Positions 20,233 through 41,052 of a DNA stretch of 64,000 nucleotides are shown here, one piece after another. How positions within the stretch are numbered: position 1 is the first letter of the stretch; each line of letters starts with the position of its first letter. The notes under the pieces are model-generated. The model was not told the DNA's origin, ran no database searches, and saw nothing but the letters and a program-made list of their open reading frames with translations. The position numbers were made by a program, and so were the translations under genes. Source of the DNA: a virus; IMG/VR virus record IMGVR_UViG_3300025012_000056; one strand, 5' to 3'.

Positions 20233-20308
20233 AACAACGTAGCTCAGCTGGTTAGAGCGGCAACCTTCTAAATTGCAAGTCACAGGTTCGAATCCTGTCG
20301 TTGTTCCA
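20233..20308 (+). tRNA. tRNA-Arg, anticodon UCU
   Basis: Acceptor aacaacg/cgttgtt, D-arm gctc/gagc, anticodon stem gcaac/attgc with loop ct-TCT-aa, T-arm acagg-ttcgaat-cctgt, followed by cca. Confidence 0.88.
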
Positions 20309-33944: not shown

Positions 33945-35078
33945 ATGAAGGATGCGGATCTCAAAGACTACGTAACTAATCAAGAGGCTTTTGAAAAATA
34001 TCAGAAGCTGATGAATAACCCTTTTCTCAAGAAGTACGTAGACAAGCCATATGTAGCCAGTGATGGGACTAAAATAAATTTGATGCTACTCCCTCACTCC
34101 CTGAGAGCCAAGATTGAACATCTGCCGCAAGAAGAACAAACCAAGATTCTTGGGTTGAAGAAAGCCCACATCCATCTTTACAATACAGCGATGGGTTTCA
34201 AAGGAACTGCATTTGCATATAATCCTAAAAAGGTTGGAAAACCAGGGGTTGGGAACATATCAATGTTAGAAGGAAAGAAGGATGAGATAATAGAATTACT
34301 TGGTAGAATGTATACAATTGGAGAGGTACATCAGATAATAACAAAGGACTGGAAGATGCCCGTGTCTCTACAAATGTTTAATGTGTTTGCAAAGAAGTAT
34401 AATGAGATAATAAGAGAAAGAACTGAAGTCTACAAACAATCATTTGAAGATGTGAGACTTGCGGTGAAGCGGAGTAGACTGGACGAACTAACATGGATGT
34501 ATGTGGTACACAAGACACAATATCAAAAACATAAGTATGGGAATGATATGCGGGTTCTTCTTTCAGTGTTAGAACAAATAAGAAAAGAAGTTGAGGGAGA
34601 CACATTAAAAGTAGAAGGCGATATTGGGATAAAGATTGAGACGACTGTTAATACACATCTTCAAAAAGAAGTGTTTAGGGAACTCAATATACAAATGATA
34701 ATCATTGCGAAAGTGGCTGCAAGAATGGGGGCAGATCCGATGATGTTATATAAGAGTTTGGTTGAGAGTTATTACAGTAAATACACAGGGATAAATGGTA
34801 AACCAGAATTTGATGAGGAGATAGCTTATCCCTCAACAGAGATATATGATTGGGTCGGTATAAGAGAAGCTAACGACAAGGTGAACGAAGCTGTGGAGGT
34901 AAATATATTGGCAAAACCAGAACAAACTGACGAGCAAAAGAAGAAGGATGAAGAGAAGAAGAAAATCAAATCAAAGTTGCTTGGTCTATTAAGTAAAGAG
35001 AAAGCTGATTTGCATTACAGAAAGAGTTTGGTTGAGAAATCAATATTAGATGGAGACACAAATAGAATTAAAGAATGA
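33945..35078 (+). CDS. Conserved-looking helical protein, possible terminase small subunit
   Basis: 377 aa with an HTH-like segment and RLDEL...VLEQIRKEVEG; weak and contextual. Confidence 0.35.
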   Translation: MKDADLKDYVTNQEAFEKYQKLMNNPFLKKYVDKPYVASDGTKINLMLLPHSLRAKIEHLPQEEQTKILGLKKAHIHLYNTAMGFKGTAFAYNPKKVGKPGVGNISMLEGKKDEIIELLGRMYTIGEVHQIITKDWKMPVSLQMFNVFAKKYNEIIRERTEVYKQSFEDVRLAVKRSRLDELTWMYVVHKTQYQKHKYGNDMRVLLSVLEQIRKEVEGDTLKVEGDIGIKIETTVNTHLQKEVFRELNIQMIIIAKVAARMGADPMMLYKSLVESYYSKYTGINGKPEFDEEIAYPSTEIYDWVGIREANDKVNEAVEVNILAKPEQTDEQKKKDEEKKKIKSKLLGLLSKEKADLHYRKSLVEKSILDGDTNRIKE

Positions 35079-35359
35079 ATAGAAAAGTGAAGTTCAGACG
35101 TTGGATACCATCTCGATACGATATGAGAGGTGGAAGCAAGGTGTTGAAGGATGGGACAGGAATATTTGAAGAAGAGTTCAATGGAAGAGGTACATTCTTG
35201 CAATGGGCTAATTGTTTCGAACAATTTGAAGAAGATGGTATTGGGAATTATACGGTTGCGTTGGTAGAGTTGAAGAACGGAAAGATTGAGGAAGTGTTAC
35301 CCCAAAATTTAATGTTCGAAAACAAATATTATATAATTGTTAAACAAAGAGCTAATTGA
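35075..35359 (+). CDS. Hypothetical protein
   Basis: 94 aa, ATGA overlap. Confidence 0.55.
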   Translation: MNRKVKFRRWIPSRYDMRGGSKVLKDGTGIFEEEFNGRGTFLQWANCFEQFEEDGIGNYTVALVELKNGKIEEVLPQNLMFENKYYIIVKQRAN

Positions 35360-35550
35360 TGAAACCATTTACACAGCAAGAATTGGAGAACTTGGCTTTA
35401 AAGAGAAAGATTGAGGAGTTGGAAAAGCAGACAACTTCTCTCGCGCGAGAGATAAGTGGTCTCAAGAATGGGATGATCCGGATCACAAACTATATTGATA
35501 TGAAGTTTGGTGAGTTAATTGAAATTGTTGAAAATAACGATAGGAAATAA
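35356..35550 (+). CDS. Small coiled-coil protein
   Basis: 64 aa with a heptad pattern. Confidence 0.5.
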   Translation: MMKPFTQQELENLALKRKIEELEKQTTSLAREISGLKNGMIRITNYIDMKFGELIEIVENNDRK

Positions 35551-35664
35551 TATGGCTTCAAAGATTGTGAAGAACAACGGGATTAAAAAGGAATTAATTG
35601 TGAGAGCAATAAGCAAATTGAATTCCTTGGAATCTAATATGGATAAGTTATTAAGGTTGATAAA

Positions 35665-35991
35665 ATGAGTGGAGAGACAGACGACGAAATTGATGATAAT
35701 CCTTTAAAAAAGAAGAAAGGGGATTGGAAACCAAAGGACGGCGGTAAACGACCGCAAGTTAAGATATTGATGGAGTGGGAGAGCGAAGCATTTGACCCTT
35801 GGTTTATCAAGAATATCAAGAGGGATGTTTATTATAGGGAAGACGTTGAAGACGGTTTGGGTTATCTTTTCAAAGTTATATTCGTTGATGAGACGGAGTT
35901 GGAGTTTAAATATGATTATGAGACAGAAAGGGATGAGAAGTTAATTCAGTTTGAAGAAAAAATGGGTCGTTTGCGTGTGTTTGTTATTTGA
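35665..35991 (+). CDS. Hypothetical protein
   Basis: 108 aa. Confidence 0.55.
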   Translation: MSGETDDEIDDNPLKKKKGDWKPKDGGKRPQVKILMEWESEAFDPWFIKNIKRDVYYREDVEDGLGYLFKVIFVDETELEFKYDYETERDEKLIQFEEKMGRLRVFVI

Positions 35992-36109
35992 AACTTGTAA
36001 GAGATGGGCGATTTAGAAGAGTTTGTTGTAGTTGGTAAGAAGCAAGTTTTGACCCCAGGGAAAATCTAAAGAGAAGTGGTTCAAGAGAAAAATAAAAAAG
36101 AAACAAGAG

Positions 36110-36403
36110 ATGACTTTACAAATAATGTTGGATGATACTTCTGTAGTAAAGAAAGCGCAAAAAGTCAATTCAAGCGATAAAAGGAAGGACAATTATTTCA
36201 TCAAATCTTCTTCAGAGGAAAGAAGACTTTTTAAAGACAAAATAAATAGGTTATCTTTAATAGACAAGAAAATTCACAATATTATGTTAGAGATACCAGA
36301 ACTAAGAATGACGGTCTATTGCAAAGAAGGAAGTGATTTGAAAAGCATAAAGGAAAAATACTTAAAATTATCAAGAGAACCAATAAAAGAGGAAAATGTA
36401 TGA
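36110..36403 (+). CDS. Hypothetical protein
   Basis: 97 aa. Confidence 0.5.
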   Translation: MTLQIMLDDTSVVKKAQKVNSSDKRKDNYFIKSSSEERRLFKDKINRLSLIDKKIHNIMLEIPELRMTVYCKEGSDLKSIKEKYLKLSREPIKEENV

Positions 36404-36499
36404 TTGAAATAATAATTATAATTGTTTGTGTAGGAGTGGTTGTAGGATTACCAATTTTAGTAGCGTTGATAGAAGATTGACGGGATAAATAAACAAGAA

Positions 36500-36510
36500 C
36501 AAAGTTATTA
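36500..36510 (+). promoter_or_regulatory. CAAAGTTAWWA putative phage promoter core, one of 7 copies
   Basis: Also at 10984, 12370, 13710, 37292, 41055 and 56105, each shortly upstream of a gene start. Confidence 0.55.
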
Positions 36511-36534
36511 AAACAAACTAAAAAATTTAAAGTT

Positions 36535-37206
36535 ATGAAAACAAAAATTATTTTGTTCGCTTTGTTTGCTTTTATCGCTTTTTTAGGTAAAAGTCAAACA
36601 TTTTCAATTCCTAACGATGCTGCGGTGATTAAAGATTCCACAAGCACTAACATAGAATATAATTATTGGGTTTGTTCTGAGGGGGAATTATATGCTGATC
36701 TTGGAGGTATTAATGTCTTTATGGAGGAAGGATCAAAATGTTTATCTTGGCATTTAGGCGGTTCTAATTATTATGTGAAAAATAATGCCACTTTGTATCT
36801 TTGGGGAGAAGGTGGCAGCAATACTATTTATTACGAGCCAGATGCTATTATCTTTGATAGTTTATATGGCGGAGGATCAAATGTCTTTATTGAGTGCGCT
36901 GATTTGATATTTGATTATTATTTTGCTCCTAAGGATGGTTGCAATGAAAATACATTAGATATAGACGAAAATATTGGCTATTTTAGTGTCTCCCCCAATC
37001 CCACGACAGGCATAATTAATATTCGTTTAAAAGATGAAGATGTGGGAAATTATGTTTTAAGAATATTTGATAATATTGGAAAAGAAATATTTAAAAGCAA
37101 TACTTCAACGCAAATAGATTTGAAGGAATACGGAAGTGGATACTATTTTTTAATTGTTTGCGATAATAAAGGGAGAATCAATAAGATAAAATTATTGGTA
37201 TTATAA
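36535..37206 (+). CDS. Secreted protein with T9SS type-A C-terminal sorting domain
   Basis: Sec signal MKTKIILFALFAFIAFLGKSQ; C-terminal FSVSPNPTTGIINI...IFDNIGKEI...IDLKEYGSGYYFL...KIKLLVL. Confidence 0.85.
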   Translation: MKTKIILFALFAFIAFLGKSQTFSIPNDAAVIKDSTSTNIEYNYWVCSEGELYADLGGINVFMEEGSKCLSWHLGGSNYYVKNNATLYLWGEGGSNTIYYEPDAIIFDSLYGGGSNVFIECADLIFDYYFAPKDGCNENTLDIDENIGYFSVSPNPTTGIINIRLKDEDVGNYVLRIFDNIGKEIFKSNTSTQIDLKEYGSGYYFLIVCDNKGRINKIKLLVL

Positions 37207-37345
37207 CTTAACAGCGTTAATAGATGAATAGACAAGATTGGGATTTACTTCTGTTTGGAATGAAAGCGACTGAGATTGTAAGAAAAGACAACAAAGTTAT
37301 TAAGAGAAGAGTGGATCCTACAATAATAAAATTAAAGATTTTGAA

Positions 37346-37999
37346 ATGATTAATTATAACTATATCGTCTTTGACTGTGAGACTGGGGGATTATCACCCA
37401 AGAGAAATCCAATAACAGAAATAGCATTAATCGCTTGTGAGTTCGGAACATTCAAGGAGATTAATCGCTTTGAGACCTTTGTTAGACCATACGCTGATTT
37501 AGTTATTGAGGAGAAGGCGTTGGAGATGACAAACATTACGTTGAAAGAGATCAATCAAGGGATAGACTATAAGGAGTTGGTTAAGTTGTTAATTCAATTT
37601 TTTCAGCTTTCAACACCCAGAGGAGGCAAAGGAAATAGATTTTATCCAATTCTTGTAGGACATAATGTGAGTTTTGATATAGGGTTTGTAAAAGAGATAT
37701 TTCAGTTTGCAGGACGAAATTTGCACGACTATGTGGCTTCTAACAATGAGGAAGTTGACCGAATATGCACGCTGAAACTATCTAAGGCAAAATGGATAGA
37801 CAACGGAAAATACAACTTAGAAGCCTGTTGCAAGAGGGCAGGAATAACATTAACAGATTCCCACAGAGCTATGGCGGATGTTGCAGCGACAAAGAAATTA
37901 GTTGAGATATTATTAAAACCAGTTATAAAGAATGCTAAGGGAGAGGTTGAAGAAGAGACCAATGGGGTTCAGGAATTTAGAAAACAATTTGAGATTTAA
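37346..37999 (+). CDS. DEDDh 3'-5' exonuclease (DnaQ/epsilon-like)
   Basis: VFDCETGG, VGHNVSFD, HRAMADV. Confidence 0.9.
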   Translation: MINYNYIVFDCETGGLSPKRNPITEIALIACEFGTFKEINRFETFVRPYADLVIEEKALEMTNITLKEINQGIDYKELVKLLIQFFQLSTPRGGKGNRFYPILVGHNVSFDIGFVKEIFQFAGRNLHDYVASNNEEVDRICTLKLSKAKWIDNGKYNLEACCKRAGITLTDSHRAMADVAATKKLVEILLKPVIKNAKGEVEEETNGVQEFRKQFEI

Positions 38000-38434
38000 A
38001 TGATTGATTTAACAAACATATCGTTAAAACAATTAGCAGAAATAATAGTTGATTGGGAGAAACACCACAAGGAAGAACATGGTTCTTTCATTTGTGAGAC
38101 CAAAGAATGCTATTGTATTTATCTTCGGATGAAAGGGGTGTATTATTTGAAATTAGCTGAGGAAAATTAAATAAAGTTAATGTTTGGGAGATAAAGAAGC
38201 GAGATACAAAAAATTCTTATTCTTATATAGATGAGCGTGGGAATATAATGGAACAATTGTCTATTGAGGGGCACAATGAGAAGATGAATGTGGGAGATAT
38301 ATTAAGAGCGAGAGGAAAGTATTGTGTAAGCGATTTTGAAATTGTTGAGGTAAAAAGACGAAGAAAACAAGAAGACCCAGCTAATTATATAACTTTATTT
38401 AGTTTGAGATTGTTAGGACTAAAAAGAAACTGAT

Positions 38435-39118
38435 ATGGGATTAGATAAATTTGAAGAAGACATTCCGAAGGAAGATAATTTAGAATATTTGGGGGAATTA
38501 GTTAAGGGAGATGACTATAATGTTAATCCTGATAAGGATGTAAGAATAATTGATCCGGAAACATTAGACAACACATTAAATATTAATTTTATGGAAAATC
38601 AGATTATTTTAATAAACGGGATATTGACTCCTTTGAGTTCTTTCCAGTTAATTAGGGGATTGAAGGAAGACCAGCTTTCAAAACATTTTAGTATTAAAGA
38701 AAAGAAGATTGGAGAGTTTCAACCCTTTTTATATGCAGCGCCATTAATAGAATTGTTAGAGGCATTTAGAGAAGAAATGGTCTCTCCAGTAATAATCAAT
38801 AGTGGTTTCCGCACGCATGAGAAACAAGAAGAGTTGAAGAAGGAGGGTTATCGTGCAGCCACTTATAGTCCTCACGAACAGGGGATGGCTTTTGATATAG
38901 ACACGAAGACTTGGAAGGAAACGCAAGATCAGGTTGCAATCATCTCCAGAATTGCTAATAATATGAAGATAATGGTGCGGATAGGATATATGAAATACTG
39001 GCATGCAGACAAAATGACCTTCTTTCATATAGACGTATGTCCTATGTATTTTGCGGAGGGAATGCCTTATCATAGTAAAGAACATCCAAAAGCGTGGGAG
39101 AATGAAATAAAATGGTGA
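38435..39118 (+). CDS. Peptidase M15-family cell-wall hydrolase, candidate endolysin
   Basis: INSGFRT, SPHEQGMAFDI (H-x6-D) and FFHIDV zinc ligands. Confidence 0.8.
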   Translation: MGLDKFEEDIPKEDNLEYLGELVKGDDYNVNPDKDVRIIDPETLDNTLNINFMENQIILINGILTPLSSFQLIRGLKEDQLSKHFSIKEKKIGEFQPFLYAAPLIELLEAFREEMVSPVIINSGFRTHEKQEELKKEGYRAATYSPHEQGMAFDIDTKTWKETQDQVAIISRIANNMKIMVRIGYMKYWHADKMTFFHIDVCPMYFAEGMPYHSKEHPKAWENEIKW

Positions 39119-39327
39119 TAAAACTAAATATATTGGAAATTATAAGATATTCAATATCAGTTAAGGGGAGAACGGTTGCCCCTGATGTGGAGTTGGAAGA
39201 GCCCATTCTTATTGAGGACAGACAAGATCCAAAGGTTGAGGAAAATAGAAAAAGAATAATGGGGGAGGAATCTGTAAAGAACAATCAATTGGTAGAAATA
39301 TTCTTCTATTTCAGAGAAAAGATTTAA
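39112..39327 (+). CDS. Hypothetical protein
   Basis: 71 aa between the peptidase and terminase. Confidence 0.45.
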   Translation: MVIKLNILEIIRYSISVKGRTVAPDVELEEPILIEDRQDPKVEENRKRIMGEESVKNNQLVEIFFYFREKI

Positions 39328-41052
39328 ATGCCTAAGTTTACAAAGAAACCAAAAGATGGTGTAGGAAGTGCATTAGACGTTCCATATCATATACCAAACA
39401 TTCCACATGTAGAGACACTTCCAAAGATCACAGAGACTTATAAGATTGTAGAGACCATAATAGACAATTTAGACGATGAGGCTTTATCTCAGCTTTGTTC
39501 GGGGACTGAGGAAGACATTGATAAGTTATTTGGGGTACTTACTGACGAAACGTACAAAATGTTGTTCGGCAAAGGAGGAATAGTGCGAGAAAGCACATTT
39601 CTTTATTTAGATAAACTCACAAAGAGTGTCGAAGAAACATTTAGAATTGAGAGTTTGAACTACTTTATTGCGAGTGCTCTCCCTGACTTTGAGATTAATT
39701 GGCACCATTTAGAGTGGGGCGAGATTGTGATGCATTATCTAAAATTTAGTATTTTGGCTGCGAGGGATCACGGGAAGTCATTCTTCTTCAGTAATGCACT
39801 CCCTATTTGGAAGATGTACCGTGCGAAACCATATAGCGAAATGTTGGGATACAGGAGGAAAGACTTGTCTCTATGTTTGACTGGCTATATCATTACAAAC
39901 GAAATGGGATTAGGAGTAGACCTGTTAGAGATTGTTAAAGGAACAATTGAAAGTAGTCCTTCCATTAGAGACAGGCTGATGCCTGAAAATAAGAACGATG
40001 GTTGGGGAGCAGAAAGAATTAAGTGTAGGAATGGTAGCAGATTAAGTGTTAAGAGCTATGGGAGTTCCTTCAGAGGAAGACATCCTGGATATATAATAGT
40101 GGACGATTTTTTGAAAGATAACATTATTTACAGCGATATCCAAAGACGAAAGAGCAACGACTATTTCCATGCTGTTATAATGAATGCAATTGTTCCAGGA
40201 GGACAAGTCCCGGTTGTAGGAACACCGTTCCATGAATTAGACTTGTATGGAGATCTCAAGACAAAGAAGGGTTGGTTGGTTTTAGAATATCCTGCTATAT
40301 TTCCAGATGGCAGAGTCTTATGGCCGAGCAGATATACCTTTAAAGACCTTATCAATAAAAAAGAAGAACAAGGAAATCTTATATTTTCCAGGGAGTCCTT
40401 GGTGAGACCAATCATGAGCGATAGTTCGTTGTTTCCGTTTGAGTTGATAAAGAGAGCATATGCGGGGATGGAAAATTATACGTTGGTTAATAATGTTGAA
40501 GCGTTTCCTGTTAAGTTCGAGCATATTGTAGTGGGTTGTGATTTTGCGATTAGTGCGAATGTGGGTGCGGACTTTAGTGTTTTCACTGTTTGGGGAATCA
40601 CAGAACAACAAGAGATGTGGCTAATTCACTTTTATAGAGCCAAAGGGAGAACATATGGGGAACAAATAGCAGTTTTGGCGAGCATTAATGCTAATTTCAG
40701 GCCAACTCTCTTTTATGTAGAGTCCAATCAAATGCAATTAATATTCGGACAAGGTATGGGAGATTTGGGCTTACCGATTATTACAGAAGCAACAGGAGCG
40801 AACAAATATGATTTAAAGAAAGGTGTTCCGAGCTTGGTCTTGTTGTTTGAAAGAAATAAGATTAAATTTCCCAGAGGAGACAAATATAGTCGTGAAATGA
40901 CTGATATAATGGCTGCAGAGTTTGCCGCTATGACTTGGACTGAAAAAGGATTAGAAGGAGTGGGAGCCCATGACGATACAGTTATGTCTACTTGGCAAGG
41001 AGAGAAAGGTATGGGGAATGTAAACTTTGGGTTTGATTTTGTAATGGCTTAG
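39328..41052 (+). CDS. terL: Terminase large subunit
   Basis: Walker A AARDHGKS, Walker B IIVDDF, VVGTP coupling motif, nuclease VVGCDFA and GAHDDTVM. Confidence 0.92.
   Translation: MPKFTKKPKDGVGSALDVPYHIPNIPHVETLPKITETYKIVETIIDNLDDEALSQLCSGTEEDIDKLFGVLTDETYKMLFGKGGIVRESTFLYLDKLTKSVEETFRIESLNYFIASALPDFEINWHHLEWGEIVMHYLKFSILAARDHGKSFFFSNALPIWKMYRAKPYSEMLGYRRKDLSLCLTGYIITNEMGLGVDLLEIVKGTIESSPSIRDRLMPENKNDGWGAERIKCRNGSRLSVKSYGSSFRGRHPGYIIVDDFLKDNIIYSDIQRRKSNDYFHAVIMNAIVPGGQVPVVGTPFHELDLYGDLKTKKGWLVLEYPAIFPDGRVLWPSRYTFKDLINKKEEQGNLIFSRESLVRPIMSDSSLFPFELIKRAYAGMENYTLVNNVEAFPVKFEHIVVGCDFAISANVGADFSVFTVWGITEQQEMWLIHFYRAKGRTYGEQIAVLASINANFRPTLFYVESNQMQLIFGQGMGDLGLPIITEATGANKYDLKKGVPSLVLLFERNKIKFPRGDKYSREMTDIMAAEFAAMTWTEKGLEGVGAHDDTVMSTWQGEKGMGNVNFGFDFVMA

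Follow-up and report, generated by a model that had tools for sequence, protein, structure and literature searches.

The locus raised the question of whether a phage can send a protein of its own out through its host's type IX secretion system (T9SS). The window, i.e., the whole stretch of viral DNA that was analysed (64,000 nucleotides), contains an open reading frame (ORF) on the plus strand whose 223-aa product, P0001, had been proposed in a preliminary description to leave the cell by this route. Our analysis supported the proposal on the basis of profile matches and structure of the C-terminal domain (CTD), the phage character of the window, and contigs that bridge the junctions of the gene, with export itself being predicted; each in-silico check suggested in that description favoured it. 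We regard it as quite likely that P0001 is a phage-expressed substrate of the host T9SS; its sorting signals were seen in the protein, and its export would follow from the established pathway. The gene and its parts were as follows.

36500 to 36510, plus strand: promoter-like copy of the upstream motif CAAAGTTATTA, 24 nt 5' of the ATG
36535 to 37206 (stop codon included), plus strand: putative T9SS cargo gene encoding P0001, 223 aa with an ATG start, from the ORF list and the sequence
36535 to 36594, plus strand: signal peptide, aa 1-20, of Sec / signal peptidase I type, with a predicted cut between G-K-S and Q that leaves Gln21
36595 to 36951, plus strand: passenger, aa 21-139, a right-handed beta-solenoid according to the AF2 model, fold matches, and family conservation
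36952 to 36981, plus strand: flexible linker between passenger and CTD, aa 140-149, with pLDDT < 50 at residues 140-147
36982 to 37203, plus strand: T9SS type-A C-terminal sorting domain, aa 150-223, from PF18962, TIGR04183, and structural superposition

Both the frame and its signal peptide were present as the preliminary description had stated, and n, h, and c regions were visible in the latter. The basic N-terminus (MKTK) was followed by a 13-residue hydrophobic core and by G-K-S, so that the c region had small residues at -3 (G) and -1 (S) and Gln at +1, and residues 2-17 formed a helix in the AF2 model. Gln at +1 is the "Q-rule" of Bacteroidota signal peptidase I substrates (PMC5837995), and this column was kept in 68 of the 71 small family members that were aligned. 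Judged by inspection of the sequence and by family conservation, P0001 carries a predicted Sec signal peptide that would expose Gln21. An invariant Cys at +1, the lipobox of Llp- or Cor-type proteins, was not found, as the +1 residue is Gln and the first Cys of P0001 is residue 47. When the 71-sequence family alignment was used as input, the AF2 model of the whole protein had a pLDDT of 89.5, and residues 140-147 of the linker were predicted to be disordered.

The C-terminus had been read as a type-A CTD, and a profile search had been suggested as the check. Both relevant profiles passed their curated cut-offs: PF18962 (Por_Secre_tail) scored 40.9 bits (cut-off 27) over residues 153-217, and TIGR04183 scored 33.7 bits (cut-off 23) over residues 152-222 of 223, that is, at the extreme C-terminus. 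The model of this part, between residues 150 and 222, was a seven-strand Ig-like beta-sandwich with a pLDDT of ~82-97; a 3+4 beta-sandwich is the defining fold of the T9SS CTD (PMC11285876). The motifs P-N-P (154-156), G182, and G202-x-Y204 and a Lys-rich C-terminus were recognised. The model superposed on solved CTDs, the best match in the PDB being the CTD of NucA (8glk_D; Foldseek E 3.8e-5, TM 0.84; VIA-align Z 12.7, rmsd 1.3 Å over 73 residues), which is bound in the T9SS translocon of F. johnsoniae. The next matches in VIA-align were mirolase (8qb1, Z 11.1), FspA, RemA, RgpB (5ag9, Z 9.0), PorZ, and PorU. Secretion CTDs fitted the domain better (Z 12.7) than generic Ig domains did (Z ~8). 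A type-B CTD (PF13585 CHU_C or TIGR04131) was tried and rejected, as CHU_C reached 13.4 bits (cut-off 27) and the NCBIfam scan brought up no type-B model. Together, these results established the C-terminus of P0001 as a genuine type-A T9SS CTD.

The passenger was modelled on its own, and AF2 returned a compact, narrow right-handed beta-solenoid of ~115 aa (pLDDT 92.9, pTM 0.86). Its GG[S/I]N turns recurred four times, at residues 57, 75, 93, and 113, with a period of 18-20 aa. The preliminary description had called the passenger rich in Cys, Gly, and Tyr with repeated turns of this kind; the Gly/Tyr richness and the repeats were borne out by residues 21-150 (Gly 10.8%, Tyr 9.2%, Asn 9.2%), whereas "Cys-rich" was an overstatement for four Cys (3.1%). 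Conserved residues of the passenger were C47, E64, C121, and C136. In VIA-align, the model resembled the TibA passenger (4q1q, Z 8.8), the CAP C-domain (1k4z, Z 8.3), the Ca-dependent antifreeze adhesin MpAFP (3p4g, Z 8.0), bactofilin (6ria, Z 7.0), and Bacteroides "putative adhesins" (Z 6-7). The four named proteins are, like the passenger, narrow solenoids with ~18-20 residues per coil and short strands, and the similarity to them (Z 7-8.8 over ~83-97 aligned residues) came with 4-12% identity, a likeness at the level of the fold. Unlike solenoid modules of the TibA or MpAFP type, the passenger has neither an autotransporter barrel nor a Ca-binding RTX motif. Fold matches in this range (Z 6-9) are generic for the solenoid class; they single out no particular family and are uninformative as to a ligand. 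DUF3060 (PF11259) was tried as a family for the passenger and rejected, as its HMM did not match P0001 at E <= 1; it was weakly matched by 9 of the 71 family members (best E 5.5e-7), and an AFDB model of DUF3060 ranked eighth against the passenger (E 0.036, TM 0.41).

A solenoid joined to an Ig-like sandwich could also belong to the virion, with the CTD decorating the particle or acting there as a binding domain, and the solenoid forming a piece of a fibre or spike. Ig-like sandwiches and beta-helices are frequent on virions, the passenger model showed a weak likeness to a staphylococcal phage tail part (8egr_A, VIA-align Z 8.6) and to tailspikes, and TerL is encoded 2 kb downstream. We consider a virion part very improbable, since the cleavable signal peptide with Gln at +1 is kept family-wide, and since the CTD fits secretion CTDs well above generic Ig domains. 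Moreover, the genes around it are small and non-structural apart from one for an exonuclease, its chromosomal relatives are stand-alone cargo genes amid housekeeping genes, and the search of BFVD with the passenger model gave no match at E <= 0.001 (best 0.048).

We further investigated the family to which P0001 belongs. An exhaustive phmmer search with P0001 against 1.84 billion representatives found 633 matches at E <= 1e-3, and the best 150 of these 633 were mostly 205-250 aa long with the same three-part layout. Among the 71 aligned small members, PF18962 was present in 71/71, C47 was kept in 71/71, and a Cys directly followed Gln +1 in 66/71; W45, E64, C121, C136, and an FDY..AP..GC block were also conserved, as were P154, N155, P156, G182, G202, and Y204 of the CTD. 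Larger relatives had the passenger module beside PKD, Calx-beta, F5/8 type C (discoidin), He_PIG, GEVED, or SprB repeats, usually before a CTD, and none of these larger relatives had an enzyme domain beside it. These domain neighbours point to a non-enzymatic, adhesin-type binding module. Four proteins of 620-1020 aa (P0007, P0016, P0021, and P0026) had two or three passenger modules together with PKD and ended exactly at ...AP..GC, with no T9SS CTD. Since these four end in this way, the passenger module is also used outside the T9SS context, and possibly in other phyla too. The genome of one chromosomal member was an uncultured Bacteroidetes MAG; when the passenger profile was run against 300 genomes from the phylum of that MAG and against the 17 others of its order, neither set yielded another member. 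The passenger belongs to an unnamed accessory family of T9SS cargo of Bacteroidota type, and this family is sparse.

Other collections returned little for this protein. P0001 matched no PHROGs family, GenBank phages gave no match by megablast (14 kb around the gene) or tblastn (the P0001 protein), pattern scans of IMG/VR with P0001 and the neighbouring exonuclease found no relatives, and a feature search of the ESM Atlas with P0001 yielded no usable match. Within the 64-kb window, P0001 was the only frame that matched the family-derived CTD and passenger profiles.

The setting of the gene is clearly a large dsDNA phage, uncultured and from groundwater. All large ORFs of the window were on the plus strand, and its replication and repair genes included two helicases, DnaB, a primase, a 1175-aa family-C polymerase, thymidylate synthase, UvsX, SbcCD, an exonuclease, and a DNA ligase. 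Other landmarks were the following.

20233 to 20307, plus strand: the single tRNA-Arg (anticodon TCT), between an SSB-like gene and uvsX
38435 to 39118, plus strand: M15 endolysin gene, 1.2 kb 3' of the cargo gene
39328 to 41052, plus strand: TerL, ~2 kb 3' of the cargo gene
61557 to 63209, plus strand: portal

Both flanks of the cargo gene consisted of phage genes on its own strand, which embedded it in the phage genome; its local neighbours were small non-structural genes and the exonuclease, and the exonuclease together with three small ORFs lay between it and the endolysin gene. The host-like character of the gene was the one feature that spoke for an assembly artefact, in which host DNA had been fused into a phage contig, and the preliminary description had named such a misassembly as a danger to its reading. 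Assemblies made independently of each other argued against it. The identical P0001 protein occurred on 13 contigs from several groundwater metagenomes and different assemblers, with unchanged neighbours, and the longest of these contigs was 98.7 kb. Logan contigs of four runs were aligned to 34000-40000. A 42-kb contig of one sample, possibly the one from which the window came, spanned this whole stretch; sample X5 gave pieces at 36292-36840 and 36908-38071, and sample X7 gave one at 36298-36898, all with 0 differences, so that the X5 and X7 pieces together crossed both gene junctions. Contig depth was similar inside and outside the gene, these depths being per-contig means that do not resolve local depth, and GC content showed no break in composition (31% in the gene versus 33% in the window). 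Because independent contigs bridge both junctions, the cargo gene is not misassembled host DNA, and the probability that we would still give to an artefact is negligible.

A motif upstream of the gene, noted in the preliminary description, proved to be real, recurrent, and strand-specific. With at most one mismatch, CAAAGTTATTA had 21 copies in the window versus 3.9 expected, and 0 of 100 shuffles reached 21. The pattern CA[AC]AGTTAWWA occurred 13 times on the plus strand and 0 times on the minus strand, spanning 10984-56189, and 7 of the 13 copies were intergenic, an enrichment given that coding sequence takes up 94% of the window and non-coding DNA about 5%. The pattern is probably the signature of a group of phage promoters. 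The copy at 37292 lay within a 41-aa ORF, 43 nt 5' of the exonuclease gene. The reverse complement of the pattern holds TAnnTTTG, which we take to be the Bacteroidota -7 box, but on the non-coding strand. Around the cargo gene, a sigma-70 scan found 9 sites versus 7.9 expected, i.e., the level of chance, and a terminator scan found none. Contigs of ~6.8 kb and higher depth from two other groundwater samples had only 36195-36216 and 36512-36532 in common with the window; these two stretches of 20 nt flank the intergenic region 5' of the cargo gene. They may be regulatory words shared with a related phage, or they may be due to chance.

Directly 5' of the cargo gene and its motif, the plus strand also had an ORF of 26 codons (36401-36481) for a very hydrophobic single-pass peptide (MIEIIIII...LIED), the ATG of which overlapped the stop codon of a preceding 97-aa ORF (ATGA). 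Such a tiny hydrophobic product, together with the endolysin gene downstream, would fit a role of P0001 in lysis, as a disruptor directed to the outer membrane and acting with the M15 endolysin. To our knowledge, spanin equivalents are not known in Bacteroidota phages, which is a further point in its favour. We consider a lysis accessory most improbable, given that the gene is not adjacent to the endolysin gene but separated from it by the four intervening genes described above, and that its chromosomal relatives have no lysis context. The homolog at locus L011 was 17 kb from a GH108 endolysin and on the opposite strand.

We then asked how a gene of host type relates to its relatives in phages and on chromosomes. 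P0001-P0005 (P0005 being a fragment) formed one clade with an SH-aLRT of 99 inside the wider family. Identity of P0002-P0005 to P0001 and to each other was 36-46%, depending on the alignment, versus 24-31% to chromosomal members, and the nearest relative of P0001 in the phmmer search was 40% identical. The Cys after Gln +1 was missing in P0001-P0004, and also in P0039, which has Tyr there. When genomic contexts were examined, 5/5 of those in the clade were phage or phage-like and 3/3 of those outside it were chromosomal. The latter (P0009, P0156, and P0159) were found among housekeeping genes, e.g., those for ribosomal protein S20, ProRS, GAPDH, Dxr, RseP, GDH, and SOD.

For four of the five contexts in the clade, the phage label is probable and based on weak signs, namely orphan co-directional ORFs, a DNA methyltransferase fragment, one GH108 endolysin, and a piece resembling a TerL nuclease. 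The locus of P0002 (L005/L011/L012) covered bases 69194-108390 of the 186394 bases of JBINOC010002871.1. At least 39 kb of this contig held ~45 co-directional genes with almost no Pfam matches, among them a GH108 endolysin (phrog_315), a TerL-nuclease-like protein (phrog_2666), and giant proteins of 2044 aa (with SNF2, helicase, and Zeta-toxin/AAA_33 matches), 1550 aa, and at least 1356 aa, the last running off the locus. This 186-kb contig looks like a large phage composed almost entirely of orphan genes; as few of the neighbours at L005/L011/L012 were matched in PHROG scans, its identification as phage stays at probable. P0003, P0153 (of the P0004 cluster), and P0158 were on contigs of 1.5-2.7 kb with small co-directional orphan ORFs, one of which had a phage-type DNA methyltransferase match. 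The neighbourhoods in the clade shared nothing but the CTD gene and ranged in GC from 33% to 46%, which indicates that the gene has moved between different elements. Its membership of a separate clade, without the Cys after Gln +1 and encountered only in genomes of phage or phage-like character, argues for an old capture adapted to phages, and P0001 thus appears, from these comparisons, to be an old, host-derived, phage-adapted gene rather than fresh host DNA.

A gene with this history might nevertheless be a neutral hitchhiker, that is, a host accessory gene caught by chance, perhaps exported, and of no use to the phage. The family is sparse on chromosomes, as the census of 300 genomes of the phylum and 17 of the order showed, and no partner gene was conserved across contexts. 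Moreover, the closest relative, at L005, looked like an inserted moron, being the sole opposite-strand gene at its locus with flanking gaps of 0.5-1.8 kb. We consider a neutral hitchhiker unlikely. An identity of only 40% to the nearest relative implies that the capture was not recent, the phage-type copies form their own clade with a common loss of Cys, and core residues are kept at 36-42% identity across unrelated phage-like backgrounds. In addition, the gene has a GC content like that of the phage and the phage's own motif upstream.

As a T9SS cargo of the phage, P0001 would take the following course. The gene would be transcribed from one of the recurrent upstream motifs of the phage, the precursor would pass the inner membrane via Sec, and signal peptidase I would cleave it before Gln21. 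The host T9SS translocon, of SprA/PorV type, would then recognise the type-A CTD, and the folded solenoid would cross the outer membrane. Afterwards, the CTD would be removed, and the passenger would be released or anchored on the cell surface. A T9SS in the host is predicted from the CTD and the Q-rule.

Phage-resistance mutations of Flavobacterium reportedly map to genes of gliding motility and the T9SS (10.1101/2020.10.02.323337; PMC9804748). As resistance maps to these genes, a small binding module placed on the infected cell could shield a receptor, occupy it, or compete for the translocon. The use that we would put first, as a tentative guess, is a change to the infected cell's surface, such as a receptor being occupied or shielded or a second phage being excluded. 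The roles put forward in the preliminary description, namely masking of receptors, exclusion of superinfection, and jamming of the T9SS, are likewise guesses. A broader proposal, which we hold to be doubtful, is that P0001-P0005 are a phage-specific T9SS-cargo moron that moves among unrelated large Bacteroidota phages and serves superinfection exclusion or receptor shielding, with the solenoid binding or displacing an adhesin receptor delivered by the T9SS, or competing for the translocon. If true, this would be the first demonstration of a phage effector that works through the T9SS.

Bacteroidota owe their surface coat, their gliding adhesins, and many of their virulence factors to the T9SS, and T9SS-tagged phage genes have so far been entries in metagenomic studies. 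P0001 is small (~115 aa plus the CTD), well folded according to its model, and non-enzymatic, and it comes with a clade in phages and cousins on chromosomes, which makes it a convenient construct. Such a construct is suited to asking whether phages load the host T9SS, and with what effect on adsorption, gliding, and surface display. In addition, P0001 delineates a passenger domain that has no name and is found again in surface proteins containing SprB, PKD, or discoidin domains.

Compared to the type-A cargo of cells, P0001 has the same layout of an N-terminal signal peptide and a C-terminal CTD, and the fold and motifs of its CTD are common to NucA, RemA, and FspA of F. johnsoniae, RgpB of P. 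gingivalis, and mirolase of T. forsythia. Cellular cargo is encoded by the cell and has enzymatic or large adhesin passengers, whereas P0001 is a very small phage product without an enzyme domain. Phages also encode exclusion lipoproteins, such as Llp of T5 and Cor of phi80 and N15, which are small, reach the outer membrane via host Sec and Lol, stay in or on it, and block the receptor. P0001 differs from Llp and Cor in having no lipobox Cys and in its predicted route by Sec and the T9SS.

Closer parallels come from phages of Bacteroidota. The genome of Cryophage, an uncultured phage known by bioinformatics, encodes type-A T9SS cargo, which its authors called a "unique occurrence" at that time and read as hijacking of the host T9SS, with roles in superinfection or competition being raised (Bellas et al. 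2020, Nat Commun, PMC7468147). Cryophage and P0001 have in common an uncultured phage with a Bacteroidota-type host and a T9SS type-A sorting domain, both known from bioinformatics alone. The passengers of Cryophage are an endoglucanase, a GH39 protein, and a PA14 protein in hypervariable islands, whereas that of P0001 is a non-enzymatic beta-solenoid of ~115 aa whose family has no name; it did not vary between the samples in which it was seen, and it belongs to a phage-type clade. ORFs with T9SS sorting domains were also found in gut phage contigs of crAss-BACON cluster 2 (de Jonge et al. 2019, Viruses, PMC6949934); these have BACON-repeat or other passengers near the head module and, unlike P0001, no beta-solenoid passenger was described for them. 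Porphyromonas gingivalis phages have genes with signal peptides that expose an N-terminal Gln, a feature interpreted as fitting them to the secretion apparatus of Bacteroidota (PMC10367356). These proteins share Gln +1 with P0001, and as that paper mentions T9SS or type IX 0 times, it describes no T9SS tag for them. The principle of phage-encoded T9SS cargo is therefore not new, having been published already (Bellas 2020; de Jonge 2019), and what P0001 adds to it is a new type of passenger and a clade of phage type.
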